Below are positions 629 through 19,588 of a DNA stretch of 64,000 nt, piece after piece. The notes under the pieces are model-generated. The model made no database searches and was not told the origin of the DNA. It saw only the letters and a program-made list of their open reading frames with translations. A program made the translations under genes and the position numbers. The stretch lies in assembly GCA_944391705.1 (NCBI GenBank), contig CALXUN010000004.1:13126-77125 (forward strand). The letters are read 5' to 3'. This DNA comes from an uncultured Alphaproteobacteria bacterium. GTDB lineage: Bacteria; Pseudomonadota; Alphaproteobacteria; RF32; CAG-239. Positions within the stretch are counted from its first letter, which is position 1. Each line of letters opens with the position of its first letter.

Positions 629-1777
629 CTATTTTTTGTCAATTATTTTTAAAATAACATCACAGGCATTGGCGCTCGGGGTTTGTTCACCCAGCCCCAA
701 AATCTCCCGCACTTTGGCAAAACCTTCCATTTGACGTTCGTACAAAGGACCTTTTTTTAAGAATTCTTCCATGTAATACATGATTTTATCAACATTACAA
801 TCATTTTGCAACAATTCCGGCACAATTTCGCGTCCCAAAAGGATATTGCTTAAATTAACAAACTGAATATGCAAAAAATGTTTGGCAAACCAGGCCGTTA
901 ATGGTGCTACCCGGTAAGTAATGACATGCGGCACATCGACCATGGCCAACTCCAGCGCCACCGTACCGGAAGCTGCAACGGCAAGGTCTGCGGCAACAAA
1001 AGCATCATGCCGGTCGCTTTCATTATTGACAACAATAATCGGCAGACCGCTTTCTTCAACCATCTTCCGTACCTGGTCTTCAACCGTATGCACGGTCGGA
1101 ATCACAAAACAAAATTCTGGATGTTTTTGTTTAAATACCCTGACAAATTCCAAGAACACCGGCAACAGGCGGGAAACCTCTGTCTTGCGCGAACCGGGAA
1201 GAACAGCCATAATCCGGCATTCATCTTCAATATTATAGCGGCAGCGGAAATCTTCACTTTTACCCCAGACCACGCTGCTCTCAATCACCGGATGGCCGAC
1301 AAACGTCGTTTCCAGGTGATATGGCGTAAAATACTTCGGTTCATAGGGAAACAGCGTCAGCAGATGGTCAATGTATTTATACATGGTTTTAGCCCGTTTT
1401 TTCTTCCATGCCCATACCTGCGGCGCCACGTAATGCACCTGAGGAATACCTAAATTCTTTTTCTTTAAAGCCTTATGGATTCGCGCCGAAAAACTCCAAC
1501 TGTCAATGGTGATGACAATATCCGGTTTTTTTGCTTCAATATCGGCAACCGTTTGCCTGATACGTTTTAAGATCAGCGGAATACTTGGAATAACCTCAGC
1601 CAGCCCCATAACGGCCAAATCCGAGATGTCAAACAAAGATTTCAAACCTTCCCGTTCCATGCTTTCCCCACCGATACCGCAAAATTCGACATTCGGACAT
1701 TTATCCGCCATGGCACGCATCAACCTGGAACCAAGCAAATCACCGGAAGGTTCTCCGGCTATCAGATAGATTTTCAT
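629..1777 (-). CDS. lpxB: Lipid-A-disaccharide synthase
   Basis: 382 aa, glycosyltransferase family 19 hallmarks (N-terminal IAGEPSGD, VAPQVWAWK). Overlaps lpxI by 4 bp in the classic lpxI-lpxB arrangement. Confidence 0.9.
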   Translation of the reverse strand: MKIYLIAGEPSGDLLGSRLMRAMADKCPNVEFCGIGGESMEREGLKSLFDISDLAVMGLAEVIPSIPLILKRIRQTVADIEAKKPDIVITIDSWSFSARIHKALKKKNLGIPQVHYVAPQVWAWKKKRAKTMYKYIDHLLTLFPYEPKYFTPYHLETTFVGHPVIESSVVWGKSEDFRCRYNIEDECRIMAVLPGSRKTEVSRLLPVFLEFVRVFKQKHPEFCFVIPTVHTVEDQVRKMVEESGLPIIVVNNESDRHDAFVAADLAVAASGTVALELAMVDVPHVITYRVAPLTAWFAKHFLHIQFVNLSNILLGREIVPELLQNDCNVDKIMYYMEEFLKKGPLYERQMEGFAKVREILGLGEQTPSANACDVILKIIDKK

Positions 1778-2616
1778 TGAATAATCTCTCCCGGATTAAT
1801 TCCTATAACAAACATTTTATATTTATTTGCCAGCTTAATCACTTCTTTTTCATCAACAATCAAAGCATTCCCGGCATGGACTGCAACGCCGCGCAAACCG
1901 CTTTCGTGAGCATTTTCAATTGTTTTCACGCCGATTGTCGGCAAATCAATGCGCATATCCTGATTGGGCTTGCGAAGCTTGACCAGCACGCCGCCGTCGC
2001 CTTTGCGTCGATAATTTCCAGAGCGTTTAATCAGTTCATCGGTGCCCTCAATTCCTTCCATACCCAAAACCAGCCCTTGCTGAACAACCACGGATTGACC
2101 GACATCCAACTCACCTAAACAAAGAGCCACTTCCGTACCACGGGCAATATCAGACAAAGCTTGTTTATCCGGTTTGGCTTTCGTCAGACAGCCTTCCTGA
2201 ACCAACAATTGCGGCATAACCTCATGGATGCCGATAACTTTCATTTTTTCTGCTTCAATCTCTTTAACCAAGGCACGCAAGATTCCGTCATCACCCAATG
2301 CTTTCAGCCCGATTTTGGCAAAAAAAGCCGTTGTACGCAAATCCGGCATCAAATCAGCCAATGTCGGCCGCCGGATGGTCCCGATCATAATAACATCTTC
2401 AACGCCTTCTTCGCAAAAGCGTCTAAAGCCGGTACCGGCCTGCCCGATTCGTATCCACTGATGGGGAATTTCATTATTAAAAAGCGCCCGGTCGGCATTG
2501 CCTTCAATCGCCAGCACAAAATACGGACGCTGACTTTCACGGCAATAATTGATTAACATTTGCGGGATAACGCCCCCGCCGGCAATAATACCTAATTTTC
2601 GTTGGCCGTCATTCAT
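1774..2616 (-). CDS. lpxI: UDP-2,3-diacylglucosamine pyrophosphatase LpxI (DUF1009)
   Basis: 280 aa with N-terminal LGIIAGGGxxP and LpxI-like length. Sits immediately upstream of lpxB, as in alphaproteobacteria. Confidence 0.75.
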   Translation of the reverse strand: MNDGQRKLGIIAGGGVIPQMLINYCRESQRPYFVLAIEGNADRALFNNEIPHQWIRIGQAGTGFRRFCEEGVEDVIMIGTIRRPTLADLMPDLRTTAFFAKIGLKALGDDGILRALVKEIEAEKMKVIGIHEVMPQLLVQEGCLTKAKPDKQALSDIARGTEVALCLGELDVGQSVVVQQGLVLGMEGIEGTDELIKRSGNYRRKGDGGVLVKLRKPNQDMRIDLPTIGVKTIENAHESGLRGVAVHAGNALIVDEKEVIKLANKYKMFVIGINPGEIIQ

Positions 2617-2803
2617 AATATTTTGTTTCTCTTTGTTAATAACTTTTGCAACCTAACATAGAAAATATTTTTTTTCAAGAGGCCATATATTCTCCCTATA
2701 AAAATTCTATTCAAAACAAAAAAGTATCGCTTAATAAATTTAACATTGACAAGTTTTGTTTTTTCGGCTATTTTTTAGACGAAAACCTAATTTTTAATTT
2801 ATT

Positions 2804-3145
2804 ATGATAACAAAAATGCATCCCGAAAACGGCGAAGCTGCAGTAACCGTTGTTCGTAAAAAGTCAAATTACAACAAAACAATCGACTACTGTGATTACA
2901 AACATCCGGCAATAACGGCAATCATTCCCTGCTGGAAAGGAAAAGACGGAAAATTAATTTCCGTTGCCACCGGGAAAACCGTTACAATCGGCGAAAACGA
3001 TGATGTCCGCGTCTGTTTGGTCGGAACGACTTTCAAGTATCCGGACGGAGAAGAAATTCTCCTTACCCGCAACTGGAAACGGGAAATATATTTTATCACC
3101 CCGGAAAGAAAGCCCGAAAGCTTTTACAATGCATTCGGAGAATAA
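2804..3145 (+). CDS. Hypothetical protein (113 aa)
   Basis: ORF with plausible promoter (TTGACA near 2748) and terminator downstream; no family recognized. Confidence 0.4.
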   Translation: MITKMHPENGEAAVTVVRKKSNYNKTIDYCDYKHPAITAIIPCWKGKDGKLISVATGKTVTIGENDDVRVCLVGTTFKYPDGEEILLTRNWKREIYFITPERKPESFYNAFGE

Positions 3146-3160
3146 AATCCCGGCTTACAA

Positions 3161-3193
3161 AGAAAACCGCCTTCTTAAAGGCGGTTTTCTTTT
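3161..3193. terminator. Bidirectional rho-independent terminator hairpin between convergent genes
   Basis: aaaaccgcctt-cttaa-aaggcggtttt stem with T-run, lying between the 2804..3145 (+) gene and cca (-). Confidence 0.55.
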
Positions 3194-4423
3194 TTAAACA
3201 AGTTCTTTTATTTCGGCCTGCAATACGCTGATTTTGTATTCCCGCAGCCGTTCTTTAAAAGTTTCATCCTTGGGAAGTTTATTAAAACCCGGGACATCTT
3301 CGGCTTTAACCGTTTCAATCACCCGGCAGGCAAGTTTCAGCTTTTCGGCGCTCGGGGCAAATTCTGACCTTTGTTTGTCTGTTGATATCGTGCTTTCAAA
3401 ATCAGCCCGACACACGTCAATATATTCATTAACATAGCATGTATGCCCTATTGTCATTTTGTCAGCCAGATCATACAAACTTCCGACACGCATTACCGGA
3501 ATATAATGAAACTTCATATGCTGCTCGGCCGCCATGGTCGCAAAATCCCGAAAACGATTCGGTGTTTTAAGACGGTTGCAAATTTTATAAACCAACTGCC
3601 GGCTCTGGCTTTCATGTTTTTTATGCGAGGGAAGCTCTTCTTCGGGCGTCAAAAGTTTGCCGACATCGTGCACCAAAAGACCAAATTTAACCAACACCGG
3701 GCTTTTTTCTGCCAATTTCAAGGCATGCAGGACATGAGCCCCGGTATTCCCTTCAGGGTGAAATTCCGTACGTTCCGGAACTTTCCACAGGGCATCTATT
3801 TCCGGCAGAATAATTTTTAAAGCGCCAATCTCGCGCGCCAACTCAATAAACCGGTAAAAAGCCGGTGTTTTCATGGCTTTTAAGAGCTCAATCCAAACCC
3901 GCTCGGCCGTCAGATGTTCTAGCATCCCTTTTTGAACCATTGAGCGGCACAGTTCAACGGTAGCCGGTGCGGCATCAAAATCAAGCTGTGCAGAAAACCG
4001 ACAAAGGCGCAAAACCCGGAGAGGATCTTCCACAAAATGTTCAGCATTGACATGACGCAGAATTTTATTTTTGATGTCATCTTGTCCGCCGAAATAATCA
4101 ATATATTCCCCGGCTTCCTCATCATAAGCAATTGCATTACAGGTAAAATCGCGCCGTTCCAAATCTTCTCTTAAAGTAACGGATTCATCAAAAATAAATT
4201 CAAAATCCGTATGTTTATCGCCGGTTTTGATTTCTTTGCGCGCCAGAGCATATTCTTCCCGCGTCAGCGGATGCAAAAAAACCGGAAAACCTTTGCCGAC
4301 TTCCGTAAAACCTTGTTTAATCATTTCATCGGGCGTTGAGCCGACCACGACATAATCACTGTCATTTGGAATTCTTCCCAAAAGTCTGTCGCGTACGGCA
4401 CCGCCGACCTGATATATTTTCAC
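3194..4423 (-). CDS. cca: CCA tRNA nucleotidyltransferase / poly(A) polymerase family with HD domain
   Basis: 409 aa. N-terminal GGAVRDxLLG...DxDxV pol-beta motif plus a C-terminal HD domain (HDVGK). Confidence 0.85.
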   Translation of the reverse strand: MKIYQVGGAVRDRLLGRIPNDSDYVVVGSTPDEMIKQGFTEVGKGFPVFLHPLTREEYALARKEIKTGDKHTDFEFIFDESVTLREDLERRDFTCNAIAYDEEAGEYIDYFGGQDDIKNKILRHVNAEHFVEDPLRVLRLCRFSAQLDFDAAPATVELCRSMVQKGMLEHLTAERVWIELLKAMKTPAFYRFIELAREIGALKIILPEIDALWKVPERTEFHPEGNTGAHVLHALKLAEKSPVLVKFGLLVHDVGKLLTPEEELPSHKKHESQSRQLVYKICNRLKTPNRFRDFATMAAEQHMKFHYIPVMRVGSLYDLADKMTIGHTCYVNEYIDVCRADFESTISTDKQRSEFAPSAEKLKLACRVIETVKAEDVPGFNKLPKDETFKERLREYKISVLQAEIKELV

Positions 4424-4589
4424 CGCTTTTCTCCATAATCTCTTTTAAGAAGTTTAACGGATATCTTTTAAAAATCAAGTTGTAACAAATAAACCAACGA
4501 AATTATTCCGGATTGCCGACAGCTTAATACCTTGAACAAAAAGCATTCGGAATTATATCAGCGGCATAAGACACGACAAGGAGAAAACC

Positions 4590-5303
4590 ATGACTGCACC
4601 AATTTCAGGCTTTCCGGCTCTGGGAAGCAAAGCACCGGCTTTTTATGCCATCACCACGAACGGCACCATTAATTTCCCCGAAGATTTTAAGGGAAAATGG
4701 GTCATTTTATTTTCGCATCCGGCTGATTTTACGCCGGCATGCACCACCGAAATTGCGACATTTGCCGCCATGCAGGAAGATTTCAAAGCCCTAAATACCG
4801 AACTTATCGGTCTTTCGGTAGACAGTAATTCCTCACACCTGGCCTGGTTAAAAGAAATTGAGGAAAAAATTTCTTTTCATAACTATAACGGGCAGAAAAT
4901 AAATTTCCCTCTAATTGCCGATAACAAAGGCGATATTGCCGCTTTATACGGCATGTTCCGTCCGGAACTGGGCGATACCAAAACCTGCCGTTCAGTATTT
5001 TTTATTGATCCGGACAGTACCATCCGTGCCATGATACATTATCCGGCCACCACCGGCCGGAATTTTGCCGAAATTAAGCGGGTTATAGAAGCTTTGCAGA
5101 CGACAGACGCTTACGGGATATCCACCCCGGCCGACTGGCAGCCGGGAGATGACGTTCTTTTATCGGCCCCCAAAACACACCAGCAGGTACATGAAAGAGA
5201 ACAAAAAATGCCTGATATGCAATGCAGTGACTGGTTTTTCTGCACCCAGAAATACGAAAACTTAAAAGATAAGACAAACCGGAAAGCTACTTTTTCCCGA
5301 TAA
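4590..5303 (+). CDS. Peroxiredoxin (1-Cys/Prx6-like) with C-terminal extension
   Basis: FTPACTTE peroxidatic-Cys motif and AhpC/TSA fold signature; 237 aa. Confidence 0.8.
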   Translation: MTAPISGFPALGSKAPAFYAITTNGTINFPEDFKGKWVILFSHPADFTPACTTEIATFAAMQEDFKALNTELIGLSVDSNSSHLAWLKEIEEKISFHNYNGQKINFPLIADNKGDIAALYGMFRPELGDTKTCRSVFFIDPDSTIRAMIHYPATTGRNFAEIKRVIEALQTTDAYGISTPADWQPGDDVLLSAPKTHQQVHEREQKMPDMQCSDWFFCTQKYENLKDKTNRKATFSR

Positions 5304-5985
5304 TACCGGCAACAAAATCAAGTTCTTCCGGCAAAATCTGGTGGTCAAGCGTATTAAAAACTTTTACGGCTACCGGAATATTTTCCTGTTGCAGCCATTT
5401 TTTGGTATAGTCCAGGCATTTAAACAAAACCGTCTGGTCTTTTTTGCCATGCAGCAAATAAACTGTCGGCCGCGAAACAATTTGAAGATCCAGATGTTCA
5501 TCAGCTGCCGCAAGCCCGGAAAACGAAAAGCAGCCGGCCAGTTCCTGCATTCTGATTAAAGCCGTCCAAATTGCCAGCATTGCCCCTTGTGAAAAACCGG
5601 CAATATAAGTATTTTTGTCACGGAAACCATATTTTTTTTGCATATCGTCAATAAAAAAATTTATATCCATTGCCGTTTCAAAAAGTTTTTGCCCGGCCTG
5701 ATTATAAATTTTTGCGATTTCTTCAACCGGTGTTTCTTCAAGCCGGCGCTTGTTTTCCGCATCAAAACCGGAAACCTTATACCAGCTTTTGCGGGCCGGA
5801 TCTTTTTGTGATACATTTCCTCCTTCCGGTGCGGCTATGGCCAGACCCGGAAGTTTTTGCTGCAAATACTCATATACCGGACGCATTTCATCACGGGTAT
5901 TATTATAGCCGTGTAAAAATACCAGCAAAGACGAAGCCGGTTTTTGACTTGGAAAATACTGACTTTCAAAAACTGACAAAACCAA
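5287..5985 (-). CDS. Phospholipase/carboxylesterase family alpha/beta hydrolase
   Basis: 232 aa with a GFSQGA nucleophile elbow and an FLHGxN oxyanion region. Confidence 0.7.
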   Translation of the reverse strand: MVLSVFESQYFPSQKPASSLLVFLHGYNNTRDEMRPVYEYLQQKLPGLAIAAPEGGNVSQKDPARKSWYKVSGFDAENKRRLEETPVEEIAKIYNQAGQKLFETAMDINFFIDDMQKKYGFRDKNTYIAGFSQGAMLAIWTALIRMQELAGCFSFSGLAAADEHLDLQIVSRPTVYLLHGKKDQTVLFKCLDYTKKWLQQENIPVAVKVFNTLDHQILPEELDFVAGIIGKK

Positions 5986-6210: not shown

Positions 6211-6256
6211 TTGCTGTAGACGCATATTATTAAGGGCGCTTAGCTCAGTTGGTTAG
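6211..6256 (+). repeat. Direct repeat copy 1: 23 bp promoter-proximal sequence plus first 23 nt of the tRNA (truncated 5' tRNA fragment 6234..6256)
   Basis: 46 bp identical to 6452..6497 (ttgctgtagacgcatattattaagggcgcttagctcagttggttag), then diverges. Confidence 0.8.
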
Positions 6257-6451
6257 CTTGAGGATAAAAAATTTGCTTAGAAGCAAATTTTTTGACGAAA
6301 GGTGCCGTGAAGTTAGGTTGGGAGGGAAGCGACAGCAACCGAACCAACCGTTACGAACAAACGACAGGAGCGGCGTTAGTGAGCCCGCGGCGAGCTTTAC
6401 GTAGCGACTACGGCCCGGCTCTTGTGAAGAAAGAAAAGGCAGTTTTATAAA
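6257..6451. repeat. GC-rich ~195 bp insert, member of a window-wide short interspersed element family, flanked by the 46-bp duplication
   Basis: Composition is unlike the flanks. It shares motifs with the inserts at 12047-12180 and 16700-16810 (gcgacagc, ttagtgagc, cgaac) and contains the hairpin aaaaatttgcttagaagcaaatttttt at 6267..6293. Confidence 0.6.
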
Positions 6452-6474
6452 TTGCTGTAGACGCATATTATTAA

Positions 6475-6551
6475 GGGCGCTTAGCTCAGTTGGTTAGAGC
6501 CGGCCGCTCATAACGGTCTGGTCGTTGGTTCGAGTCCATCAGCGCCCACCA
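6475..6551 (+). tRNA. tRNA with CAT anticodon (elongator Met or lysidine-Ile2; close to E. coli ileX-like pattern)
   Basis: Hand-folded cloverleaf: acceptor gggcgct/agcgccc, anticodon loop ctCATaa, T-loop ttcgagt, discriminator A, encoded CCA. Confidence 0.8.
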
Positions 6552-6555
6552 TAAT

Positions 6556-6586
6556 AAAAACCTCTCCCTCAGCGGGGAGGTTTTTA
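6556..6586 (+). terminator. Rho-independent terminator after tRNA
   Basis: cctctccctcagcggggagg hairpin followed by TTTTT. Confidence 0.7.
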
Positions 6587-6729
6587 TTATGATAAGAATT
6601 GACAACTTGAACAGACAAAACACAAGCTTGACTCTCAAAGTCAGACAAGACGTAGGCTTTGCTGGTTTATATTTTCCTTTTAGCGTTTACTCTTTTAAGC
6701 AACCGAGCTTGTCGTCCCATTTCCAACAA

Positions 6730-6858
6730 TCAAAGATATTGTATCAAAGGTTCAATACCCCAGACAATAGCATTATTGACTGCTAAAAGAGAAAAAAGCG
6801 CAAAATAAATAGCCGCTTTCATGGTTATACCGACAATATAAAATGCGCTTTTTTTCAT
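6730..6858 (-). CDS. Small hydrophobic peptide (42 aa, MKKSAFYIVGITMKAAIYFALFSLLAVNNAIVWGIEPLIQYL)
   Basis: Found by hand; GGAGAAAAA RBS 5 nt before the ATG, single TM-like segment. Lies in the 390-bp segment bounded by the 24-bp direct repeats; below the ORF-track cutoff. Confidence 0.3.
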   Translation of the reverse strand: MKKSAFYIVGITMKAAIYFALFSLLAVNNAIVWGIEPLIQYL

Positions 6859-6962
6859 TTTTTCTCCTATTTATATTTTGTATTTAGCTGTTTTATCACC
6901 ATATACAGAGTATTCATATATGTTTTATATTTGCTTCATATTCACCTAAATGGTGCGAATTA

Positions 6963-6986
6963 ACCATAATAAAAACCTCTCCCTCA
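6963..6986 (+). repeat. 24-bp direct repeat of the tRNA 3' end and flank (accataataaaaacctctccctca), copy 2; copy 1 is at 6548..6571
   Basis: Exact 24/24 match to the tRNA discriminator-CCA plus the first half of its terminator; an att-like duplication. Confidence 0.75.
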
Positions 6987-8621
6987 ATGGAGATATTTTT
7001 CATCTTCGGGCGTATTAAGCTCATAGTAATATTCCAACAACTCCCGGGAATAATCTTCAATCCGTCCTTCCGGCAAAACCAGCATACGGCTGATGCCGAT
7101 TTGTTCCACAAATGACGGGTTATGGCTGACCACTAAAATCGTTCCTTCAAACAAATTAAAGTTACGGCCGATAACCGCCTGTGTTTCCGGATCCAAATGA
7201 TTGGTCGGTTCATCCAGAATCAGCAAATTTGCCCGCTGCAGCAAAACCTTGCAAAGAGCAATCCGTGCTTTTTCACCGGGAGACAAGACGGCTGTCTTTT
7301 TATGGACATCTTCATCATAGAATAAAAAATTGCTCAAAATCGAACGCAGCTGCCATTCATTATACCCTTCGGTTTCAACATTTTCCAAAATTGTTTTTTC
7401 CAAATCAATCTGCTCCAGTTCCTGAGCATAATAAGCCACGTCGGTTTTCGGATTATAACGGATTTGTCCGTGTTCCGGAACCAAAATTCCCATAATCAAT
7501 TTTAAAAGAGTCGATTTGCCCACACCGTTTTCACCGACAACCAGAAAACGCTCCCGACCATTTAAAAAAAAGGATAATTTTCGATAAAGCAGCCTCTGCC
7601 CCGGATATCGGAAAGAAAGTTCTTCCACCGCCAACGGTATACGGGCGCCCTCTCTTTTGGGACGGATATCCATCTTGACCTGACGATACGTCCGTTCGCG
7701 TGTTAAAAGCTGGCTCTTTTTCTTTTCCAAACGCAATGCCCGTTCCTGCCCCATACGTTTAAGCGCATGGTTGGTCTGGCTTGCCTGATTGGCACGCCGC
7801 ACAAATTCCTCAAGCTTTTTGATTTCCTTTTCCTGACGATCAATCAGCATATTCCTTGCCTTTTGTTCTTCGGCCCGTTTTTTTTGATAAACCGAATAAT
7901 TGCCGTCATAAACGGAAATTTTATGCGTTACTTTATTAATAAACATGACCTTGTTGATAATCTGATTTAAAAAATCAACATCGTGACTGATAATCAGCAC
8001 CATACCTTTATAACGCTTCAGATAATCAATAACAAAATCCCTGGTTGCCGCATCAAGATGGTTTGTCGGCTCATCCAAACATAAAATATCAAATTTCGAA
8101 AACAGCACCCGGGCAAATGCCATTTTAGATTTTTGCCCGCCGGAAAGCTCTTTCATCGGCTTATCCAATAAATCCGGATTAATATTCATTTTTTCAATTA
8201 AGACCAGCAGTTCGTCATCGGCCTCATATTGTCCGTAATAATCCAGCTCTTCCTGCAATTTCGCCACTTTTTCAAGCAACGCCGGATGTTCGGCCTCACC
8301 GGCCGTTTCCAGCCTTTTATAAACCTCTGCCAGTTCAGCGTTGATTTTGCGCAGCGGACGGCCGTCATTCAAATAATCCCACACGGTCATATTTTCATCT
8401 TCAAGAACAATCTCCTGCGGCAGATATCCGGCTCTGGCCTTTCCGATATCCAGCTCACCGCTGTCCGGTTTTATTTCTTTTAAAAGAAGCCTGAACAAAG
8501 TTGTTTTGCCGGCGCCGTTAACCCCGACGACACCGACTTTATCCTGTCCGTTTATCTGAAATTCTGCATCATCATAAATAATTTCAGATCCGAAAGATAA
8601 ATTTATATGGCTTCCTCTCAT
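6984..8621 (-). CDS. ABC-F family ATPase (two ABC cassettes, EttA/Uup-like)
   Basis: 545 aa with two Walker A (GVNGAGKTT, GENGVGKST), two LSGGQ-like signatures (LSGGQKS, LSPGEKA) and a charged KKRAEEQKARN linker; no TMD. Confidence 0.85.
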   Translation of the reverse strand: MRGSHINLSFGSEIIYDDAEFQINGQDKVGVVGVNGAGKTTLFRLLLKEIKPDSGELDIGKARAGYLPQEIVLEDENMTVWDYLNDGRPLRKINAELAEVYKRLETAGEAEHPALLEKVAKLQEELDYYGQYEADDELLVLIEKMNINPDLLDKPMKELSGGQKSKMAFARVLFSKFDILCLDEPTNHLDAATRDFVIDYLKRYKGMVLIISHDVDFLNQIINKVMFINKVTHKISVYDGNYSVYQKKRAEEQKARNMLIDRQEKEIKKLEEFVRRANQASQTNHALKRMGQERALRLEKKKSQLLTRERTYRQVKMDIRPKREGARIPLAVEELSFRYPGQRLLYRKLSFFLNGRERFLVVGENGVGKSTLLKLIMGILVPEHGQIRYNPKTDVAYYAQELEQIDLEKTILENVETEGYNEWQLRSILSNFLFYDEDVHKKTAVLSPGEKARIALCKVLLQRANLLILDEPTNHLDPETQAVIGRNFNLFEGTILVVSHNPSFVEQIGISRMLVLPEGRIEDYSRELLEYYYELNTPEDEKYLH

Positions 8622-11537: not shown

Positions 11538-11975
11538 ATGACGATTAAAAAAATCATACTGATTTCAAGTTTATGTCTGACCATTCTTCCATTAACATCT
11601 GTGCAGGCCCGCAACATTCGTTACGGCTATAATGCACAAGGCGATTATGTTCCGGTTAAAATTGACGGCCGGCGTGTCCGCTACGGCTATAATGCACAAG
11701 GCGATTATGTCGCCAAATCAATCGGCGATGATAACATCAGATACGGCTATAATGCACAAGGCGATTATGTACCGGTTGAAATCAACGGCCGACGCATCCG
11801 CTACGGCTACAATGCACAAGGTGATTATGTCATTAAATCAATCGGCGATGATAACATCGGTTATGGTTACAATGCACAAGGCGATTATGTCATTAAATCA
11901 ATCGGTGATAATAACATCGGTTATGGTTACAATGCGAAAGGCGATTTTGTTCCCACTTCCTTTGGCAGGTTTTAA
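11538..11975 (+). CDS. Secreted repeat protein, 6 x 20-aa RYGYNAQGDYV-containing repeats
   Basis: AAGGAAA RBS, a 24-aa signal peptide, then six tandem 20-aa units alternating between two subtypes; terminator downstream. Confidence 0.65.
   Translation: MTIKKIILISSLCLTILPLTSVQARNIRYGYNAQGDYVPVKIDGRRVRYGYNAQGDYVAKSIGDDNIRYGYNAQGDYVPVEINGRRIRYGYNAQGDYVIKSIGDDNIGYGYNAQGDYVIKSIGDNNIGYGYNAKGDFVPTSFGRF
11619..11972 (+). repeat. Tandem repeat, 60-bp period x ~6 (higher-order 120-bp A/B alternation), coding
   Basis: Units share near-identical stretches such as ctacggctataatgcacaaggcgattatgt. Confidence 0.85.
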
Positions 11976-12027
11976 GACAAATGACTGAATACGAAAAAGC
12001 CCGTCCTTAAAAGGACGGGCTTTACTT

Positions 12028-12046
12028 TGGCTCCGACTATCTGATT
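12028..12046 (-). repeat. Orphan 19-nt copy of the tRNA-Asn 3' end (att-like direct repeat)
   Basis: tggctccgactatctgatt is identical to 12275..12293 (3' acceptor/T-stem of tRNA-Asn) and follows a terminator. Confidence 0.7.
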
Positions 12047-12274
12047 GGGTACTCCCGCCGGAAAACTGATTTTTTTAATTTGTATATCCTGCAACGGCGG
12101 GTCCTCCTCGCGTCGTAAGGTTCAAACGTCGCATTTCGCCAAGCGATTTGCTAGGCTCAACGCTCGTTTTCACCAACTTCCCGCTCCGAACAGATGACCA
12201 TCGGTCATCTGTTCAAATCAGTTCCGAACGCACATGCAAAAAGCCCATCCTTTTTCAAGGATGGGCTTTATTTT
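12047..12274. repeat. 230-bp remnant segment between tRNA-Asn and its 3'-end duplicate; contains a GC-rich insert-family sequence and a 28-bp palindrome
   Basis: GC-rich stretch 12047..12180; palindrome gaacagatgaccatcggtcatctgttc (12188..12214) built from T-arm sequence; second terminator 12240..12270. Confidence 0.55.
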
Positions 12275-12349
12275 TGGCTCCGACTATCTGATTCGAACAG
12301 ATGACCGATCGGTTAACAGCCGATTGCTCTACCGCTGAGCTAAGTCGGA
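12275..12349 (-). tRNA. tRNA-Asn (GTT)
   Basis: Hand-folded cloverleaf: acceptor tccgact/agtcgga, D arm tagctcagcggtagagc, anticodon loop ctGTTaa, T-loop ttcgaat, discriminator G, CCA encoded. Confidence 0.8.
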
Positions 12350-12355
12350 ATAATC

Positions 12356-12430
12356 TGGAGGCCGGTACCGGAATCGAACCGATATAAAAGGATTTGCAGT
12401 CCTCTGCATAAGCCATTCTGCCAACCGGCC
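12356..12430 (-). tRNA. tRNA-Cys (GCA)
   Basis: Acceptor ggccggt/accggcc, anticodon loop ctGCAaa, T-loop ttcgatt, discriminator U (typical of Cys), CCA encoded. Confidence 0.8.
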
Positions 12431-16504: not shown

Positions 16505-16581
16505 CGGATTGTAGTTCAGCCTGGTAGAACGCTTCGTTCGGGTCGAAGAGGTCGCTGGTTCGAGTCCAGTCAATCCGACCA
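16505..16581 (+). tRNA. tRNA-Pro (CGG)
   Basis: Acceptor cggattg/caatccg, anticodon loop ttCGGgt with G37, T-loop ttcgagt, discriminator A, CCA encoded. Confidence 0.8.
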
Positions 16582-16584
16582 AAT

Positions 16585-16613
16585 AAAAAAGCCGCCTTTA
16601 CGGCGGTTTTTTT
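16585..16613 (+). terminator. Rho-independent terminator after tRNA-Pro(CGG)
   Basis: gccgcctttacggcgg hairpin followed by a T7 run. Confidence 0.7.
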
Positions 16614-16619
16614 ATGTGG

Positions 16620-16815
16620 TATGAAAATGGGAGAAGAACCAGCGACCTCGATAGAGGCTCGAGGATAAAAACAACCGGAGTAGCGGTTGTTTTTACCGCA
16701 AGAGGCGCCGTTTTGTTATTTGAGTGAGACGAGCGACAGCCGGCGAAACGAAATCTACAAAACAAGTGACCGACGCGCGGTTAGTGAGCGTCTAGCGAAC
16801 TTACCAAGCGAGAGA
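16620..16815. repeat. GC-rich insert-family segment; carries an inverted partial tRNA-Pro T-arm copy at 16631..16650
   Basis: Shares gcgacagc / ttagtgagcg / cgaac motifs with 6257..6451. Composition contrasts with the AT-rich flanks. Confidence 0.55.
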
Positions 16816-16840
16816 GGTTCGAGTCCAGTCAATCCGACCA
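16816..16840 (+). repeat. 25-nt exact copy of the tRNA-Pro(CGG) 3' end (att-like direct repeat) followed by its own terminator
   Basis: ggttcgagtccagtcaatccgacca equals 16557..16581; terminator aaagcctgtcttttagacaggttttttt at 16849..16877. Confidence 0.8.
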
Positions 16841-16994
16841 TCAAACATAAAGCCTGTCTTTTAGACAGGTTTTTTTGTTTGATAATTGCGTTAGCAATGG
16901 ACACGAACCAGCGAACGCTGGTTTGACTACAAGCGAAAGGCGGGCGGCAGAACGCCGGTCGGCTGATAAGCCGATGAGCGTAGTGAACGAAGTA

Positions 16995-17006
16995 GTCCAG
17001 TCAATA
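16995..17006 (+). repeat. Third, degenerate tRNA-Pro 3'-end fragment (agtccagtcaat) followed by a terminator
   Basis: 12-nt match to the T-stem/acceptor region; terminator aaaaacctgtctttttagacaggttttttt at 17018..17047. Confidence 0.5.
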
Positions 17007-17046
17007 AGGACCAAATAAAAAACCTGTCTTTTTAGACAGGTTTTTT

Positions 17047-18111: not shown

Positions 18112-18202
18112 CCTTTCGCTGGTAGTCGAACCGTCCCCCGACGGTTCAAATCCGAGCCCCGACATTAAAAAAGAGGCCGCTTCCAGCTGGCCTCTTTTTG
18201 GA
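18112..18202 (+). repeat. 91-bp direct repeat copy 1: degenerate plus-strand tRNA-Pro-like 3' end plus terminator
   Basis: About 90% identical to 18274..18364. Contains gacggttcaaatccg T-arm-like sequence and the terminator gaggccgcttccagctggcctc. Confidence 0.7.
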
Positions 18203-18273
18203 TCAGAACAGGCGGATGACTTCGTTCACTGGCGCTCATCGGCTTATCAGCCGACCGGCGTTCTTCAAGCCCG
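18203..18273. repeat. 71-bp segment that is the inverted complement of 16935..17000
   Basis: cgctcatcggcttatcagccgaccggcgttct...gcccgc is the reverse complement of gcgggcggcagaacgccggtcggctgataagccgatgagcg. Confidence 0.7.
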
Positions 18274-18364
18274 CCTTTCGCTGGTAGTCGAACCGTCTTG
18301 CCGACGGTTCAAATCCGGGCCCCGACATTAAAAAAGAGGCCGCTTCCGGCTGGCCTCTTTTTGG
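18274..18364 (+). repeat. 91-bp direct repeat copy 2
   Basis: See copy 1; its 3' end overlaps the 3' end of the minus-strand tRNA-Pro(TGG). Confidence 0.7.
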
Positions 18365-18438
18365 TCGGGACAGGCGGATTCGAACCGTCGGCATCTTGCT
18401 CCCAAAGCAAGCGCTCTACCAGGCTGAGCTATGTCCCG
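18362..18438 (-). tRNA. tRNA-Pro (TGG)
   Basis: Acceptor cgggaca/tgtcccg, anticodon loop ttTGGga, T-loop ttcgaat, discriminator A, CCA encoded. Confidence 0.8.
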
Positions 18439-18613
18439 TTTATATTCAATATATAAGCCTAATAATTTTCTTCAAAGAGCAAGATGCCTCGGCATCTTTC
18501 TTGCTCCATAAGTTTCGCTTTTTCCAAAGCTCAACAACTCCGCTTCGGTCATAGTTACTGTAACATTCGCTTTGTTCGCTTGCACGCTCACACGCTCTTT
18601 AACCGTAACTACC

Positions 18614-18658
18614 CTGAAACTAAAAAAACTTTTCACCGGAAACTTTTTTTAGTTTCAG
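18614..18658. repeat. Perfect 15-bp-stem inverted repeat (ctgaaactaaaaaaa / tttttttagtttcag) abutting the truncated tRNA half
   Basis: Seen directly; the 15-nt loop is cttttcaccggaaac. Confidence 0.7.
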
Positions 18659-18698
18659 CCCAAAGCAAGCGCTCTGACCTAAGCTGAGCTATGTCCCG
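18659..18698 (-). pseudogene. Truncated tRNA-Pro 5' half (acceptor through anticodon loop TTGGG), pseudo-tRNA
   Basis: The first 40 nt match the tRNA-Pro(TGG/GGG) genes, then the sequence diverges into an inverted repeat. Diverged partial 3'-half anticodon-stem copies (gagcaaga..gatgcc..) at 18476..18508. Confidence 0.55.
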
Positions 18699-18733: not shown

Positions 18734-18810
18734 TGGTCGGGACGAGAGGATTCGAACCTCCGACTTCTTGCACCCCATGCAAGCGCTCTACCAGGCTGAA
18801 CTACGTCCCG
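18734..18810 (-). tRNA. tRNA-Pro (GGG)
   Basis: Acceptor cgggacg/cgtcccg, anticodon loop atGGGgt, T-loop ttcgaat, discriminator A, CCA encoded. Confidence 0.8.
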
Positions 18811-19046
18811 TTAATTTACCATAACTTTACAATAATTTTCTAAACCGTGCAAGAAGTCTCCGACTTCTTGTCTTGCTCCGTAAGCCTCGCTTTGTCATGC
18901 TCGGCAACTTCGCTTCGGTCACGCCTTTACAACAATTTCTGTTTTTCTATATATCTGCTGTTTAAAAATTGCAAGAAAAATCTGCCACATACACAAAGGT
19001 AAAATTTAAACTTGACATATACGCATACCTGGTATATGTATAAAAT

Positions 19047-19063
19047 ATACCCGCGTGGGGTAT
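19047..19063 (+). promoter_or_regulatory. CsoR-family-type operator-like palindrome ATACCCgcgtGGGGTAT overlapping the promoter of the Cys-rich ORF
   Basis: Perfect 6-bp arms around a GC core, immediately downstream of a -35 TTGACA (19012..19017) and a TATAAAAT -10-like element (19039..19046). Confidence 0.45.
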
Positions 19064-19085
19064 GCTTAAATAAGGAGAAAAACAA

Positions 19086-19253
19086 ATGAGTAAATGCAAC
19101 AATCCGAATTGTCATTGTGAAAACTGCCAATGCGGTGATAATTGTCAATGCGGCAAAGAGTGCCGTTGCGGCGAAAATTGCACCTGTGGTGAAAATTGCC
19201 AATGCACCAAGGACAATAAATGTAATCCTGATTGCAACTGTGATAAAAAATAG
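19086..19253 (+). CDS. Cys-rich metallothionein-like peptide (55 aa, 16 Cys; MSKCNNPNCHCENCQCGDNCQCGKECRCGENCTCGENCQCTKDNKCNPDCNCDKK)
   Basis: Hand-translated; AAGGAG RBS 8 nt upstream of the ATG, repeated C-x-C-G-x-N-C motifs, TAG stop at 19251. Below the 60-aa cutoff of the ORF track. Confidence 0.6.
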   Translation: MSKCNNPNCHCENCQCGDNCQCGKECRCGENCTCGENCQCTKDNKCNPDCNCDKK

Positions 19254-19312: not shown

Positions 19313-19588
19313 ATGGAAAATCATAACCCGAGCCACCTGGAAAATATACCGCGTTTAAACCGCATTGCCGGACAAATTGAAGGTATCAAAAAAATGATTG
19401 AGGAATGCCGTTACTGCCCGGAAATCATCAGTCAGCTTCGTGCCGTACGTTCGGCCGTCAAAGCCGTAGAATCAAATATTTTGCAAAAACACCTGCAGCA
19501 TTGTGTTGCTCAATCATTTGAAAATCCTGCCGAACGTGATAAAAAAATTGAAGAACTGAAAGCTCTCTTTGATCGTTTTGACGGCTAA
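19313..19588 (+). CDS. csoR: CsoR/RcnR-family (DUF156) metal-sensing transcriptional repressor, Cu(I)-type x-C-H-C site
   Basis: 91 aa with RYCxEI and HLxHC motifs; C35/H60/C64 align to the Cu(I) ligands C36/H61/C65 of characterized CsoR. Confidence 0.8.
   Translation: MENHNPSHLENIPRLNRIAGQIEGIKKMIEECRYCPEIISQLRAVRSAVKAVESNILQKHLQHCVAQSFENPAERDKKIEELKALFDRFDG

Follow-up and report, generated by a model that had tools for sequence, protein, structure and literature searches.

The window analysed here, meaning the whole 64-kb stretch of DNA, has a gene context of housekeeping genes, and five of its six tRNA genes carry adjoining non-coding units (a frequency per tRNA that comes from this one window). 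The GC-rich segments in these units are small, ORF-less cassettes of three families: family B at 6257-6412 (+), 16658-16816 (+), and 18496-18648 (-; the end can alternatively be placed at 18659), with a truncated copy near 18872-18922 (-); family A at 16880-17013 (+) and 18199-18334 (-), with a truncated copy at 18112-18171 (-); and family C at 12047-12186 (-). A sequence-only reading of the window had picked out five segments, all of which are present at the coordinates it gave, and each of which adjoins a duplicated tRNA fragment. Its grouping of the five into a single family did not hold: 6257-6451 and 16620-16815, which align at 74% identity, belong to family B, 16880-17000 and 18203-18273 to family A, and 12047-12180 to family C, and the supposedly shared motifs gcgacagc and ttagtgagc are restricted to the two family B segments. 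Within each family we found further copies and a consensus; across the five taken together there is no consensus. The pair of family A segments described as an exact inverted copy is exact for 32 nt (16949-16980 versus 18233-18264) and differs elsewhere by substitutions and indels. The copies at 18496-18659 (-), near 18872-18922 (-), and at 18112-18171 (-) had been overlooked, as had the inverted tRNA copies that accompany every unit. In shuffled sequence, 0-0.14 matches to the core motifs are expected, and the family A model matches in the window with E = 1e-25 to 1e-27. That the segments are markedly GC-rich is true relative to nearby intergenic DNA (48-59% versus ~20-30% GC) and not relative to the window (mean 42.6%, sd 6.5%, in 150-nt intervals), for which only the two family A segments exceed the 95th percentile. 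CpG dinucleotides number 8-11 per 100 nt versus 5.8, and the clearest compositional bias is the purine content of the tRNA-sense strand (55-62% versus 48.5% overall).

At tRNA-Met, on the forward strand, a 46-bp direct repeat (6211-6256) consists of the 24 nt upstream of the gene plus tRNA positions 1-22, ending in the D loop, and is 100% identical to 6452-6497, which continues into the intact tRNA-Met (6475-6551). Between the two repeats lies the family B cassette E1 (6257-6451, with family B homology over 6257-6412, E = 1.7e-35), which starts with an A-run, a hairpin, and a T-run (~6265-6296) and whose tail contains a short inverted copy of tRNA-Met positions 21-30 (GGCCCGGCTCT) and a spacer that gives the intact tRNA-Met a -35-like box. 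The judgement that the segments hold no credible ORF stands; the 73-aa ORF at 6245-6466 has no Pfam match and is spurious, because its start lies inside the 46-bp repeat and the whole segment is missing from strain L008, in which the flanks are identical. On the 3' side of the gene, a 415-bp segment (6548-7000, +) has ACCA with a terminator at each end (6548-6585 and 6963-7000, 87% identical), and a decayed inverted tRNA-Met 3' end (ATTATGATAAG) follows the first of these terminators.

At tRNA-Asn, on the reverse strand, a displaced "old" terminator (11996-12023), which matches the tRNA-Asn terminator of strains L001 and L136, is followed by displaced tRNA-Asn positions 58/59-76 (12028-12046), by the family C module in the T loop of the partial tRNA-Asn copy (12047-12186), and by a fold-back hairpin (12187-12221) in which the T arm of tRNA-Asn in inverted form (12221 to 12200, with 95% complementarity to the tRNA) is joined to the T-stem 5' strand and TTCG in direct orientation (12199 to 12187). 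A "new" terminator (12240-12269) and the intact tRNA-Asn (12275-12349) complete the locus. The family C module folds with z = -2.3 on the reverse strand versus -0.9 on the other.

Copies also adjoin three tRNA-Pro genes. Intact tRNA-Pro(CGG) with its terminator (16505-16613, +; gene at 16505-16581) is followed by a decayed inverted tRNA-Pro(CGG) 3' part (16620-16657, +; GAACCAGCGACCTC at 16636-16649), which also holds a short direct T-loop fragment (CTCGAG), an arrangement common to L001, L002, and L007. Next come the family B cassette E3 (16658-16816, +; E = 1.4e-34), a copy of tRNA-Pro(CGG) positions 52-76 (16816-16840, 100% identical) with a terminator (16849-16873), the two spanning 16816-16873 (+), and a family A unit (16880-17045, +; 93.7 bits, E = 8e-26, fold z = -4.3) made up of an inverted T arm and hairpin (16898-16926), the module with helices P1, Pc, P2, and P3 (16927-16994), a tRNA 3' copy (16995-17013), and a terminator that runs to 17045. 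Around tRNA-Pro(TGG), on the reverse strand, a distal truncated family A unit (18112-18198, 30.8 bits) comprises a terminator, the 3' part of tRNA-Pro(TGG) in inverted form, a hairpin, and the initial 14 nt of a module; it is the sole family A copy at this gene in strain L001, which lacks the full family A unit (18199-18334; 97.3 bits, E = 6e-27) that in the window precedes the tRNA-Pro(TGG) terminator (the two spanning 18199-18361). The intact gene (18362-18438) is joined to an upstream promoter spacer with a promoter-like site at 18475-18448 and to a fold-back hairpin, the whole reaching to 18495, in which a direct copy of positions 38-49 is paired with an inverted copy (AGCAAGAAAGATGCCGA / GGCATCTTGCTC). 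Beyond it, a family B cassette (18496-18648, E = 2.7e-31) follows G37 of a pseudo 5' half of tRNA-Pro(TGG) (18649-18688, the pair spanning 18496-18688, -), and this cassette is missing in L001 and present in L134. Intact tRNA-Pro(GGG) (18734-18810, -) has upstream (18811-18940) the truncated tail of a family B cassette together with a hairpin and a spacer, and in L134 this gene carries one more full unit.

A single architecture underlies these loci. Every unit adjoins an intact tRNA gene and is nested in a partial copy of the same tRNA, broken in the T loop (57/58-59), in the anticodon loop (37/38, in tRNA-Pro), in the D loop, or just before NCCA. All units further contain the tRNA end in inverted orientation, which forms a hairpin, together with a terminator or promoter spacer of their own. 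A unit on the 3' side runs from the intact tRNA and its terminator to the reverse complement of the last ~28 nt, starting from TGG (the complement of CCA), then through a purine-rich loop of 4-6 nt to the T-stem 5' strand plus TTCGA, the module, positions 58/59-76 with CCA, and a terminator; units on the 5' side are mirror versions, with a pseudo 5' half, module, hairpin, and fresh promoter spacer. With this architecture, the tRNA stays intact and the cassette is confined to the redundant partial copy. Modules of unrelated families (A, B, C, and others) fill identical slots, and family B occurs at the T-loop, anticodon-loop, D-loop, and NCCA sites. The cassettes measure ~130-320 bp without an ORF, and the units are always co-oriented with the tRNA, with a terminator after each. 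The tRNA 3' end, the terminator, and the inverted copy together form one long palindrome centred on the terminator loop, of which the outer part decays and the inner 8-10 bp are retained, the acceptor-side pairing being least conserved. The apical loops of the inverted-copy hairpins are always short and purine-rich, and footprints consisting of the hairpin alone occur in L001 and L136, while none of 85 tRNAs with an inverted copy has an uninterrupted second copy of positions 49-76. We found no consensus promoter in the stretch that separates a unit from the terminator upstream of it. In modules A, B, and C the two ends do not form inverted repeats, and no target-site duplication of the MITE type (2-10 bp) was found, the flanking repeats being 18-100 bp of tRNA, terminator, and hairpin sequence; the units are thus not MITEs, lacking both terminal inverted repeats and a short target-site duplication of fixed length.

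On the tRNA-sense strand, which folds better than the antisense strand, the family A module forms a closing helix, a three-way junction, and GNRA-capped hairpins. Counted on alignment A4, which was fitted to the model, 89-90% of cells are paired versus 24-40% when the partners are slid; compensatory changes affect 15 of 28 pairs in one analysis and 23 of 28 in another, and none of 500 shuffles reached the observed values. G.U pairs outnumber A.C pairs (183 versus 60). The invariance of P2 in the first family A alignment was an artefact of selection, and P2 covaries in copies outside the search-pattern selection. RNAalifold on the raw MAFFT alignment recovered the T stem and P2 alone, and helices P1, Pc, and P3 were read from covariation tables. 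Family A thus has a conserved structure on one strand with compensatory changes, as expected of a structured RNA. Because thermodynamic folding of the family B cores is no better than that of shuffles (z = 0 to -0.9), our structural claims are confined to family A and, weakly, family C. The segment GCG-AAA-GG / AUGA-GCGC is suggestive of a k-turn, but a G occupies the second G.A position. A tRNA-like cloverleaf whose acceptor stem would come from the inverted copy was discarded, the acceptor part being the least conserved.

Contrary to the earlier proposal, the units are not genome-specific: a pattern scan of a genome collection returned at least 120 loci, of which about 114 among those listed are true family A loci, and family B recurs in no fewer than 12 other genomes. 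More than 100 species share the conserved core of family A, and a covariance model recognises 117 family A copies among the matches listed. These loci were retrieved by the family A pattern and, among the matches listed, nearly all are labelled Alphaproteobacteria or proteobacterium, from gut or rumen. A same-strand tRNA lies less than 130 nt upstream in 78 of the family A matches listed, representing 13 identities, and the units begin 78-96 nt after these tRNAs; in 47 of the 78, the last 14 nt are identical to the upstream tRNA. The 3' flank of family A equals the tRNA over 19 nt in 41 of 53 units, with the left junction at position 58. Position by position, the inverted copy agrees with the reverse-complemented local tRNA in 70-100% of cases, the exceptions being 57 (34%) and 58 (72%), which fall exactly at the junction. 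All 144 tRNA genes examined encode CCA. Tandem arrays occur in L015, L028, L040, L074, L107, and others, and in L045 and in L134 a unit has T-arm flanks that come from a different tRNA. The module C copy of a sister species is ~96% identical, whereas the flanking genes are only ~85% identical.

Comparison of strains shows units coming and going whole. E1 is missing in L008, which has a single 46-bp copy and no insert, and present in L009, so that the difference at tRNA-Met is one complete unit of 195+46 bp; at tRNA-Asn, it is 131+100 bp, the allele of L144 being that of L136 plus the C module and a 100-bp repeat. Strain L001 lacks 441 bp containing one A and one B unit and has a replaced A allele at tRNA-Pro(CGG), and L134 has an additional B unit and a new 850-bp insertion beside tRNA-Pro(TGG). 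Truncated and decaying copies are common, the distal copies on 5' sides being truncated at their 5' ends, and actual islands also sit within the arrays (a restriction-modification island in L061 and the 850-bp insert in L134). All of these strain gains and losses could be attributed to homologous recombination between the long repeats, which leaves the first arrival at a new tRNA unaddressed.

No protein family occurs in more than 7 of 120 loci (868 ORFs clustered, among the loci listed), and no integrase, reverse transcriptase, or transposase family appeared when the 142 nearest ORFs were compared with Pfam. Rfam 15 at the gathering threshold recognises only tRNAs in the window, and the same in 18 related loci apart from a chance Trp_leader match; the best match below threshold, cow-rumen-1 (RF02946), lies on the antisense strand and reached 21 bits where 53 are required, and rumen loci did not confirm it. 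ARAGORN found no tmRNA in the window. BLAST against a plasmid collection gave no match, the sole match in a phage collection is a mislabelled bacterial fragment with DsbD, MnmA, and tRNA-Met, and pattern scans of viral contigs gave none for family A and four chance coding matches for family B. Literature searches turned up no description of the architecture or of the string AGCGAAAGGCGG from the family A motif. None of the three families corresponds to a catalogued RNA family or mobile element among those compared.

Our preferred reading, to which we assign a probability of roughly 0.5, is that the units are non-autonomous, recombining, tRNA-nested cassettes with a conserved single-strand fold, that is, selfish elements, and that gut and rumen Alphaproteobacteria carry them throughout the lineage. 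The earlier suggestion of a miniature mobile element targeting tRNA genes is borne out by the interspersed, ORF-less nature of the cassettes, their strict tie to tRNA genes, and their variable presence among strains, though not as a single, genome-specific family with ends of the MITE type. Whole units, each a module with a repeat of 46-100 bp composed of tRNA, terminator, and hairpin sequence, would be gained and lost when these tRNA-derived repeats recombine; newcomers would enter beside the functional tRNA and push older, decaying copies outward, and modules may be exchanged between tRNA loci. A candidate factor acting in trans might recognise the fold and the tRNA-mimicking hairpin in a single-stranded unit of DNA or RNA. 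A bolder version, which we consider doubtful, is that these are mobile cassettes of a new kind, for which the host tRNA serves as the specificity template, an integron-like or CTX-phi-like system at tRNA genes. In a single-stranded unit, the inverted copy would then pair with both direct fragments and rebuild a duplex mimic of the T-arm/acceptor end, from which the conserved module would loop out at 57/58-59, the point of exchange. A recombinase or nuclease encoded elsewhere and able to recognise the stem-loops of tRNA genes would swap a single strand with the tRNA gene in the chromosome, and the insertion would become fixed on replication. In a variant, the module could be a new ribozyme or recognition RNA whose cycle passes through reverse transcription of the tRNA.

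Selfish cassettes have to be weighed against a host function, which we judge unlikely but a serious contender: the units could be host-useful small RNA genes, transcribed by read-through from the tRNA promoter or from their own start into a stable RNA whose tRNA-like 3' end (T arm, acceptor strand, and CCA) is matured or protected by the tRNA 3'-processing machinery, the module being the functional part and the antisense arm sequestering or presenting the tRNA-like part. The compensatory changes, the 3:1 excess of G.U over A.C, the GNRA-capped helices, and the strand-asymmetric folding all point this way, as do the co-orientation with tRNAs and the terminator after every unit, the family A core in more than 100 species, the 96% identity of module C between species with ~85% identical genes, and an insertion point, 58/59, at which the T loop tolerates insertion. 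Tolerance of G.U and GNRA loops are typical of RNA and would not be needed by intergenic repeats that exist only as DNA, and with deep conservation of the core over an order-level clade and a terminator per unit, a host-useful RNA fits at least as well. Against a host RNA stand the lack of a promoter between upstream terminator and unit, the many copies per genome with unrelated modules in one slot, the frequency of truncated and decaying copies, the variation of presence and allele among strains of one species, and the poor conservation of the acceptor-side pairing. Partial tRNA copies around foreign DNA are also the classical signature of integrase insertion (PMC9897764), and the sequence-only reading had offered leftover cargo of decayed islands as one origin. 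Such scars of integrated islands or prophages, attL/attR remnants after decay of the cargo, would account for the partial tRNA copies that flank the units, and real islands do occur in the arrays (the restriction-modification system in L061 and the 850-bp insert in L134). The insertion points in the anticodon loop, T loop, and extreme 3' end match the preferences of integrase subfamilies. These same three sublocations of tRNA genes are the ones that Williams reportedly described for them in 2002. We nevertheless regard this origin as largely refuted and very improbable: the core families are kept with compensatory changes across more than 100 species, module C is ~96% identical where genes are ~85% identical, the units are uniformly small with no integrase remnants among the ORFs examined, the inverted tRNA copy is foreign to att sites, and the phage, plasmid, and viral-contig collections contain no true match.

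Two mechanistic alternatives, each of which we consider quite improbable, start from the inverted tRNA copy itself. Reverse transcriptase could copy a mature tRNA from its CCA end, stall or switch at the presumed m1A58 and m1G37, and copy the module RNA, after which a snap-back at the T-stem base would yield a hybrid cDNA that recombines with the tRNA gene. Neurospora retroplasmids begin at tRNA-like CCA ends, and retroviral primer-binding sites are 18-19 nt long, the same length as the repeated stretch here (58/59-76). The inverted copy runs from the CCA complement to the T-stem base, its position-specific mismatches are confined to 57 and 58, the junctions at 57/58-59 (in all tRNA types) and 37/38 (in tRNA-Pro) are classical stop sites of reverse transcription, and the distal copies on 5' sides are truncated at the 5' end. 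This retro-element would, however, need a reverse transcriptase, and none lies near any array examined; the units contain terminators, a feature foreign to mature tRNAs, family B also uses D-loop and NCCA sites that are not known stop sites, and the encoding of CCA in all tRNA genes makes RNA and DNA templates indistinguishable. Alternatively, template switching during replication, at the palindromic terminators of strongly transcribed tRNA genes, could generate the direct-inverted-direct copies of tRNA ends. Gene conversion through the conserved GGTTCGAATCC would then spread modules into the redundant T loops, where they would survive because they break an otherwise unstable palindrome. The long palindrome centred on the terminator loop, the hairpin-only footprints in L001 and L136, and the decay of the outer palindrome with 8-10 inner bp kept are what such errors would leave; they would not explain the covarying, conserved module folds, the same architecture on 5' sides with promoter spacers, the absence of an uninterrupted second copy of 49-76 among 85 tRNAs, or the constantly short, purine-rich apical loops.

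If our description holds, a whole clade of common gut and rumen bacteria has a companion cassette at almost every tRNA gene, one with no counterpart in Rfam or in the plasmid, phage, and viral-contig collections searched. The catalogue of conserved structured families would grow by at least three, for one of which, family A, about 117 aligned examples are available for modelling. The cassettes would also provide a concrete, testable case of insertion into a tRNA loop that preserves the tRNA through a spare end, raising the possibility of a new recombination or retro-mobility mechanism with tRNA-derived specificity. In practice, the repeats break metagenome assemblies at tRNA loci and the pseudo-tRNA fragments can mislead annotation, and the unit repeats are hot spots for the gain and loss of accessory genes (an acetyltransferase and a restriction-modification system).

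Several known systems share parts of this organisation. REP/REPIN sequences with their RAYTs and the PATEs of IS200/IS605 are, like the units, short, GC-richer, ORF-less, and structured in a strand-specific way, lie near terminators in many copies, and are mobilised in trans, as the units would be; the units differ in their strict tie to tRNA genes, their nesting in tRNA copies, the lack of a symmetric doublet or GTAG-headed palindrome, and the presence of several unrelated modules in one architecture, and no RAYT or TnpA was seen within the 64-kb window. Module A does have an internal closing helix, CUAC...GUGG, yet it forms a multi-helix junction rather than a REP doublet. Family A resembles a type II (stem-II-open) hammerhead in its three-way junction, its helix order, and the GAAA and AUGA on the junction strands. 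A hammerhead reading was rejected, as C3, U4, and G5 are not conserved (the corresponding bases, directly ahead of AUGA, are variable and take part in P3), the base after GGU, equivalent to 17, is G in about one-third of copies, A15.1-U16.1 is separated from stem III by GG, and Rfam gives no match even at E = 10. With YrlA/Y RNA, tmRNA, and the archaeal introns in tRNA T loops, the units share T-arm, acceptor, and CCA elements and an insertion site that the T loop tolerates; they differ in having only the 3' part of the tRNA, with the T loop interrupted, in having no Rfam or tmRNA match, and, from the archaeal introns, in their bacterial host and uninterrupted intact tRNA gene. Islands, ICEs, prophages, and CIMEs that integrate at tRNA genes likewise insert beside an intact tRNA with a direct repeat of the tRNA end as bounds (in family A a 19-nt repeat, seen in 41 of 53 units; at E1 46 bp; and in L144 100 bp), restore the tRNA with element-borne sequence and a new terminator, use the anticodon loop, T loop, and extreme 3' end, and accrete in tandem with the newest nearest the tRNA. 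The units depart from them in their small size (130-320 bp), in having neither an ORF nor an integrase, whether in cis or nearby, in having an inverted tRNA-end hairpin and a conserved, covarying fold, in occurring as promoter-carrying 5'-side and D-loop versions, and in numbering about one per tRNA gene in the window. To our knowledge, classical integrons are unreported in Alphaproteobacteria, and the units deviate from integron attC sites in several respects: the R''/R' consensus (RYYYAAC / GTTRRRY) is not reproduced by the arms TTTGAAC and GTTCGA(A/C), which match at 5-6 of 7 positions each and have C at the fourth R' position; no IntI or attI was found at the loci examined; the cargo is mostly non-coding; and the arms are copied from the local tRNA. 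With attC and CTX-phi, the units have in common that structure on one strand is conserved over sequence, that a hairpin could reconstitute a duplex recombination site, that an unlinked recombinase is conceivable, and that arrays in the same orientation grow proximally, and the order of parts in a unit is that expected from integration of a folded circle.

Units without open reading frames, each nested in partial copies of a tRNA, lie beside intact tRNA genes throughout this lineage. In the 64 kb of source-genome DNA covered here, ARAGORN and Rfam place six tRNA genes, tRNA-Met (6475-6551, +), tRNA-Asn (12275-12349, -), tRNA-Cys (12356-12430, -), tRNA-Pro(CGG) (16505-16581, +), tRNA-Pro(TGG) (18362-18438, -), and tRNA-Pro(GGG) (18734-18810, -), and Rfam at gathering score over the whole window returned these six alone. 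At least one unit, meaning a core module with its tRNA-derived flanks and a terminator or promoter spacer, occurs at five of the six. The sequence-only reading had described five GC-rich segments adjoining tRNA genes and tRNA fragments, and this was borne out: all five are directly next to a tRNA gene, each abutting a partial copy of its own tRNA. At 48-59% GC they exceed both the window as a whole (42.6%) and nearby intergenic DNA (20-30%), and their steadiest compositional bias is a purine content of 55-62% on the tRNA-sense strand. They had been taken for a single family; instead, they sort into three. Family A has two full copies (16880-17013, +, and 18199-18334, -) and a truncated one (18112-18171, -). 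Family B includes 6257-6451 and 16620-16815 (74% identity in alignment), and a profile built from these two also picks up 18496-18659 (-), 5' of tRNA-Pro(TGG) (E = 2.7e-31), and a truncated copy 5' of tRNA-Pro(GGG), giving three full members and one truncated. The third family, C, lies at 12047-12186 (-). The supposed exact inverted pair (16935-17000 and 18203-18273) is exact over 32 nt and not beyond.

An inverted tRNA copy accompanies the units. On the tRNA-sense strand, 3'-side units read: intact tRNA, intrinsic terminator, reverse complement of the last ~28 nt of the tRNA, a short purine-rich loop (GAGAA, GAAAA, GGGAA, and similar), the T-stem 5' strand repeated in direct orientation with TTCGA, the module, positions 58/59-76 (CCA included) likewise in direct orientation, and a second terminator. 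The inverted copy opens with TGG, the complement of CCA, immediately 3' of the terminator T-run. In effect, a redundant partial tRNA holds the module in its T loop, and tRNA-derived sequence on both sides of the module is available for pairing with the inverted copy. The 5'-side units have the mirror-image order: at tRNA-Pro(TGG), a pseudo 5' half up to G37 is followed by the family B module, positions 38-49 in direct and then in inverted copy, a spacer with a promoter-like site, and the intact tRNA. E1, the family B cassette at tRNA-Met (6257-6451, +), is preceded by a copy of the 24 nt 5' of the tRNA and of tRNA positions 1-22, and these 46 bp recur ahead of the intact gene. On the 3' side of tRNA-Met, two copies of ACCA plus terminator (6548-6585 and 6963-7000, 87% identical) enclose 415 bp with very small ORFs only, which looks like a further cassette, of an extreme-3'-end type.

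A scan of a species-representative genome collection with the family A pattern AGCGAAAGGCGG-N6-12-ACGCCGGT found at least 120 loci. About 114 of the matches listed are true copies and 6 are chance matches in GC-rich coding DNA; the true loci listed lie almost entirely in MAGs from gut or rumen that carry the label Alphaproteobacteria or proteobacterium, and the suggestion of a genome-specific element therefore falls. Because the related loci compared below (L numbers, from other strains and species) were fetched with this pattern, they are biased to family A. In 78 of the matches listed, the distance to a same-strand upstream tRNA is below 130 nt, and the unit's final 14 nt equal those of the tRNA in 47 of these 78. 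The motif mostly starts 78-96 nt past the tRNA, or ~160-310 nt where another unit intervenes, and 13 tRNA identities are represented among these neighbours (Ser, Pro, Lys, Met, Gly, Ala, Arg, Glu, Val, Trp, Thr, Gln, and Asn). Insertion into tRNA loops follows a fixed geometry: the 3' flank equals the tRNA for exactly 19 nt in 41 of 53 distinct family A units, and position 58 forms the left junction, which together place the insertion point at 57/58-59 with a one-base ambiguity. The inverted copy matches the local tRNA at 70-100% per position, save for the junction positions 57 (34%) and 58 (72%). The same slot is taken by unrelated modules at tRNA-Gln (L049) and tRNA-Arg (L095) and by a family B variant in L025 and L057, and family B and A modules can stand serially within one T loop (for example, L040). 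Family B also occurs in the anticodon loop of tRNA-Pro (L023 and L134) and immediately before or after NCCA (L065, L126, L024, L052, L054, and L113). Its conserved 3' end CTTACGGAGCAAGAC (for example, 18496-18510, -, and in L024, L052, and L113) is similar to tRNA-Pro in its anticodon loop and 3' stem (CTTTGGGAGCAAGAT), and its motif GGTTAGTGAGC is D-arm-like, so family B could retain remnants of tRNAs that hosted it earlier. In L069 (reverse strand, ~7400-7643), tandem pseudo 5' halves of tRNA-Pro each have a 23-nt GC-rich hairpin (ACCGGACGCCGGCCGCGAG...) in the D loop, as does a pseudo 5' half in L023, and this insert could represent another mini-module.

Family A has a conserved single-strand fold. 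Covariation tables define a closing helix CUAC:GUGG (variants CCAC:GUGG, CUGC:GCG, CUUC:GAG, UUAC:GUAA, and CUAG:CACUG) and a short helix GCG:CGC. Hairpin P2 consists of GGCG, two purine mismatches, C-GNRA-G, and CGCC; a junction GGU precedes hairpin P3, whose pairs vary (CGGC/GCCG, CAGC/GCUG, AUGC/GCAU, ACGC/GCGU, AAGC/GCUU, GAGC/GCUC, and CGCC/GGCG), and AUGA and a variable terminal hairpin follow. When 58 copies are aligned with MAFFT, 89.3% of cells are paired, against 26-40% with the partners slid, and 15 of 28 pairs have compensatory changes. A covariance model built from this alignment, whose E-values are rough owing to a short calibration, gives 94 and 97 bits for the two full copies in the window and 90 bits for a highly divergent L001 allele, and recovers 117 copies across 100 loci; in the alignment fitted to the model (A4), compensatory changes rise to 23 of 28 pairs, including changes in P2 (GC to CG, GC to AU) in copies outside the search-pattern selection. 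The excess of G.U over A.C pairs (183 versus 60) indicates that the folded strand is the tRNA-sense one. Single-sequence folding gave z = -4.3 and -3.0 for sense versus -2.3 for antisense in family A, -2.3 versus -0.9 in family C, and no difference from shuffles for family B cores, with few sequences behind the structural claims for B and C. A stem-II-open hammerhead, which the family A junction resembles in look, was rejected, as the catalytic core is unconserved, and no Rfam match to the fold was found up to E = 10. The cow-rumen-1 motif (RF02946) weakly matches 18278-18339 (+) and 18116-18176 (+), with 21 and 16 bits where gathering requires 53. Both matches lie antisense to the family A hairpin, and the motif stayed below threshold in rumen loci; it might represent part of a related element seen from the opposite strand.

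Within one species, units are gained, lost, replaced, and amplified in tandem. Among same-species strains (contigs with identical neighbour proteins, 97-99.7% identity), L008 has an empty site at tRNA-Met, with a single 46-bp copy and no E1, and L009 has E1. At tRNA-Asn, L136, L001, and L002 have the hairpin alone, then a Mac-family acetyltransferase gene; L144 differs from the L136-type allele by precisely two additions, the 131-bp C module and a direct repeat of 100 bp that comprises hairpin, spacer, terminator, and tRNA 59-76; L138 is rearranged; and the window, L009, and L140 have C and have lost the acetyltransferase gene, with ATGACTGAA alone as remnant. This Mac/hexapeptide gene encodes 200-203 aa in several strains (L001 10158-10760), and its remnant in the window (~11982-11990) is the first three codons, beside a displaced tRNA-Asn terminator. 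The neighbouring ORF 11538-11975 (145 aa; weak Pfam matches alone, to beta-flower and DUF7422) contains five tandem 60-nt repeats (11613-11972) whose number varies by strain; the ORFs called in L001, L002, and L136 range from 65 to 145 aa. At tRNA-Pro(TGG), L001 is without 441 bp (a full A and a B unit), the distal truncated A copy being all that is left there, and L134 has an additional 850-bp insertion directly at the tRNA, holding an A unit with a hairpin from a different tRNA, with the old truncated copy moved outward. At tRNA-Pro(GGG), L134 has a full B unit versus a truncated tail in the window, and at tRNA-Pro(CGG) the L001 A unit is a different allele, with terminators permuted among the cassettes there. 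Module C is ~96% identical to its sister-species copy (L083), where flanking genes are ~85% identical. Tandem arrays of identical units are common and can hold larger cargo: L061 has a 4.5-kb island (1060-5430, between tRNA-Pro(CGG) and its family A units, with CGACCAA repeats at its bounds) encoding a fused EcoRI-like N6-adenine and C5-cytosine DNA methylase and two ORFs without a Pfam match. Many metagenome contigs of the species (L003, L004, L006, and several scan loci) stop ~180 nt from the AP-endonuclease gene, in the 5' part of tRNA-Pro(CGG) directly before the cassette array, so the repeats evidently break assemblies.

Partial tRNA copies are ascribed in the general literature to integrated elements (PMC9897764), and a literature text search found no description of this architecture or of the family A motif string. 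We infer that the units are non-autonomous selfish cassettes, not island scars. The window's gene context is housekeeping (peroxiredoxin, ABC-F, DinB, NUDIX, RpiB, SHMT, glycosyltransferase, AP endonuclease, CsoR, and FeoB); near its tRNA-Pro genes, a small cysteine-rich, metallothionein-like ORF (~19040-19210, +) lies just 5' of the CsoR-type metal repressor (19313-19588), with FeoB downstream (19660-22017). Clustering of 868 ORFs from 120 loci gave no family in more than seven loci, and the 25 most frequent of the 114 Pfam families in the 142 ORFs nearest the arrays include no integrase, transposase, or reverse transcriptase. The viral contigs, plasmids, and phage records searched had no true match; L135 (MT837473, 'Bacteriophage sp.'), which holds DsbD, MnmA, tRNA-Met, and a family A unit, is a fragment of a bacterial chromosome and was rejected as a phage. 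Rival explanations are that the units are small RNAs useful to the host and built on a tRNA 3'-end scaffold, that they derive from tRNA reverse-transcribed with stops at positions 58 and 37, or that they arise by template switching at terminators during replication.

If the units are selfish cassettes, new ones would come in at the functional tRNA, with older ones pushed away and decaying, and their day-to-day dynamics would stem from recombination of the long repeats made of tRNA, terminator, and hairpin sequence. The fold and the tRNA-mimicking hairpin could serve as recognition features for a putative trans-acting factor on a single-stranded form of the unit. The order of the parts is exactly that expected if a folded circle (tRNA 59-76, terminator, inverted copy, loop, tRNA 49-58, and module) were to integrate at 58/59, and for this reason we consider a mechanism like that of attC sites or of CTX-phi to be possible by analogy.
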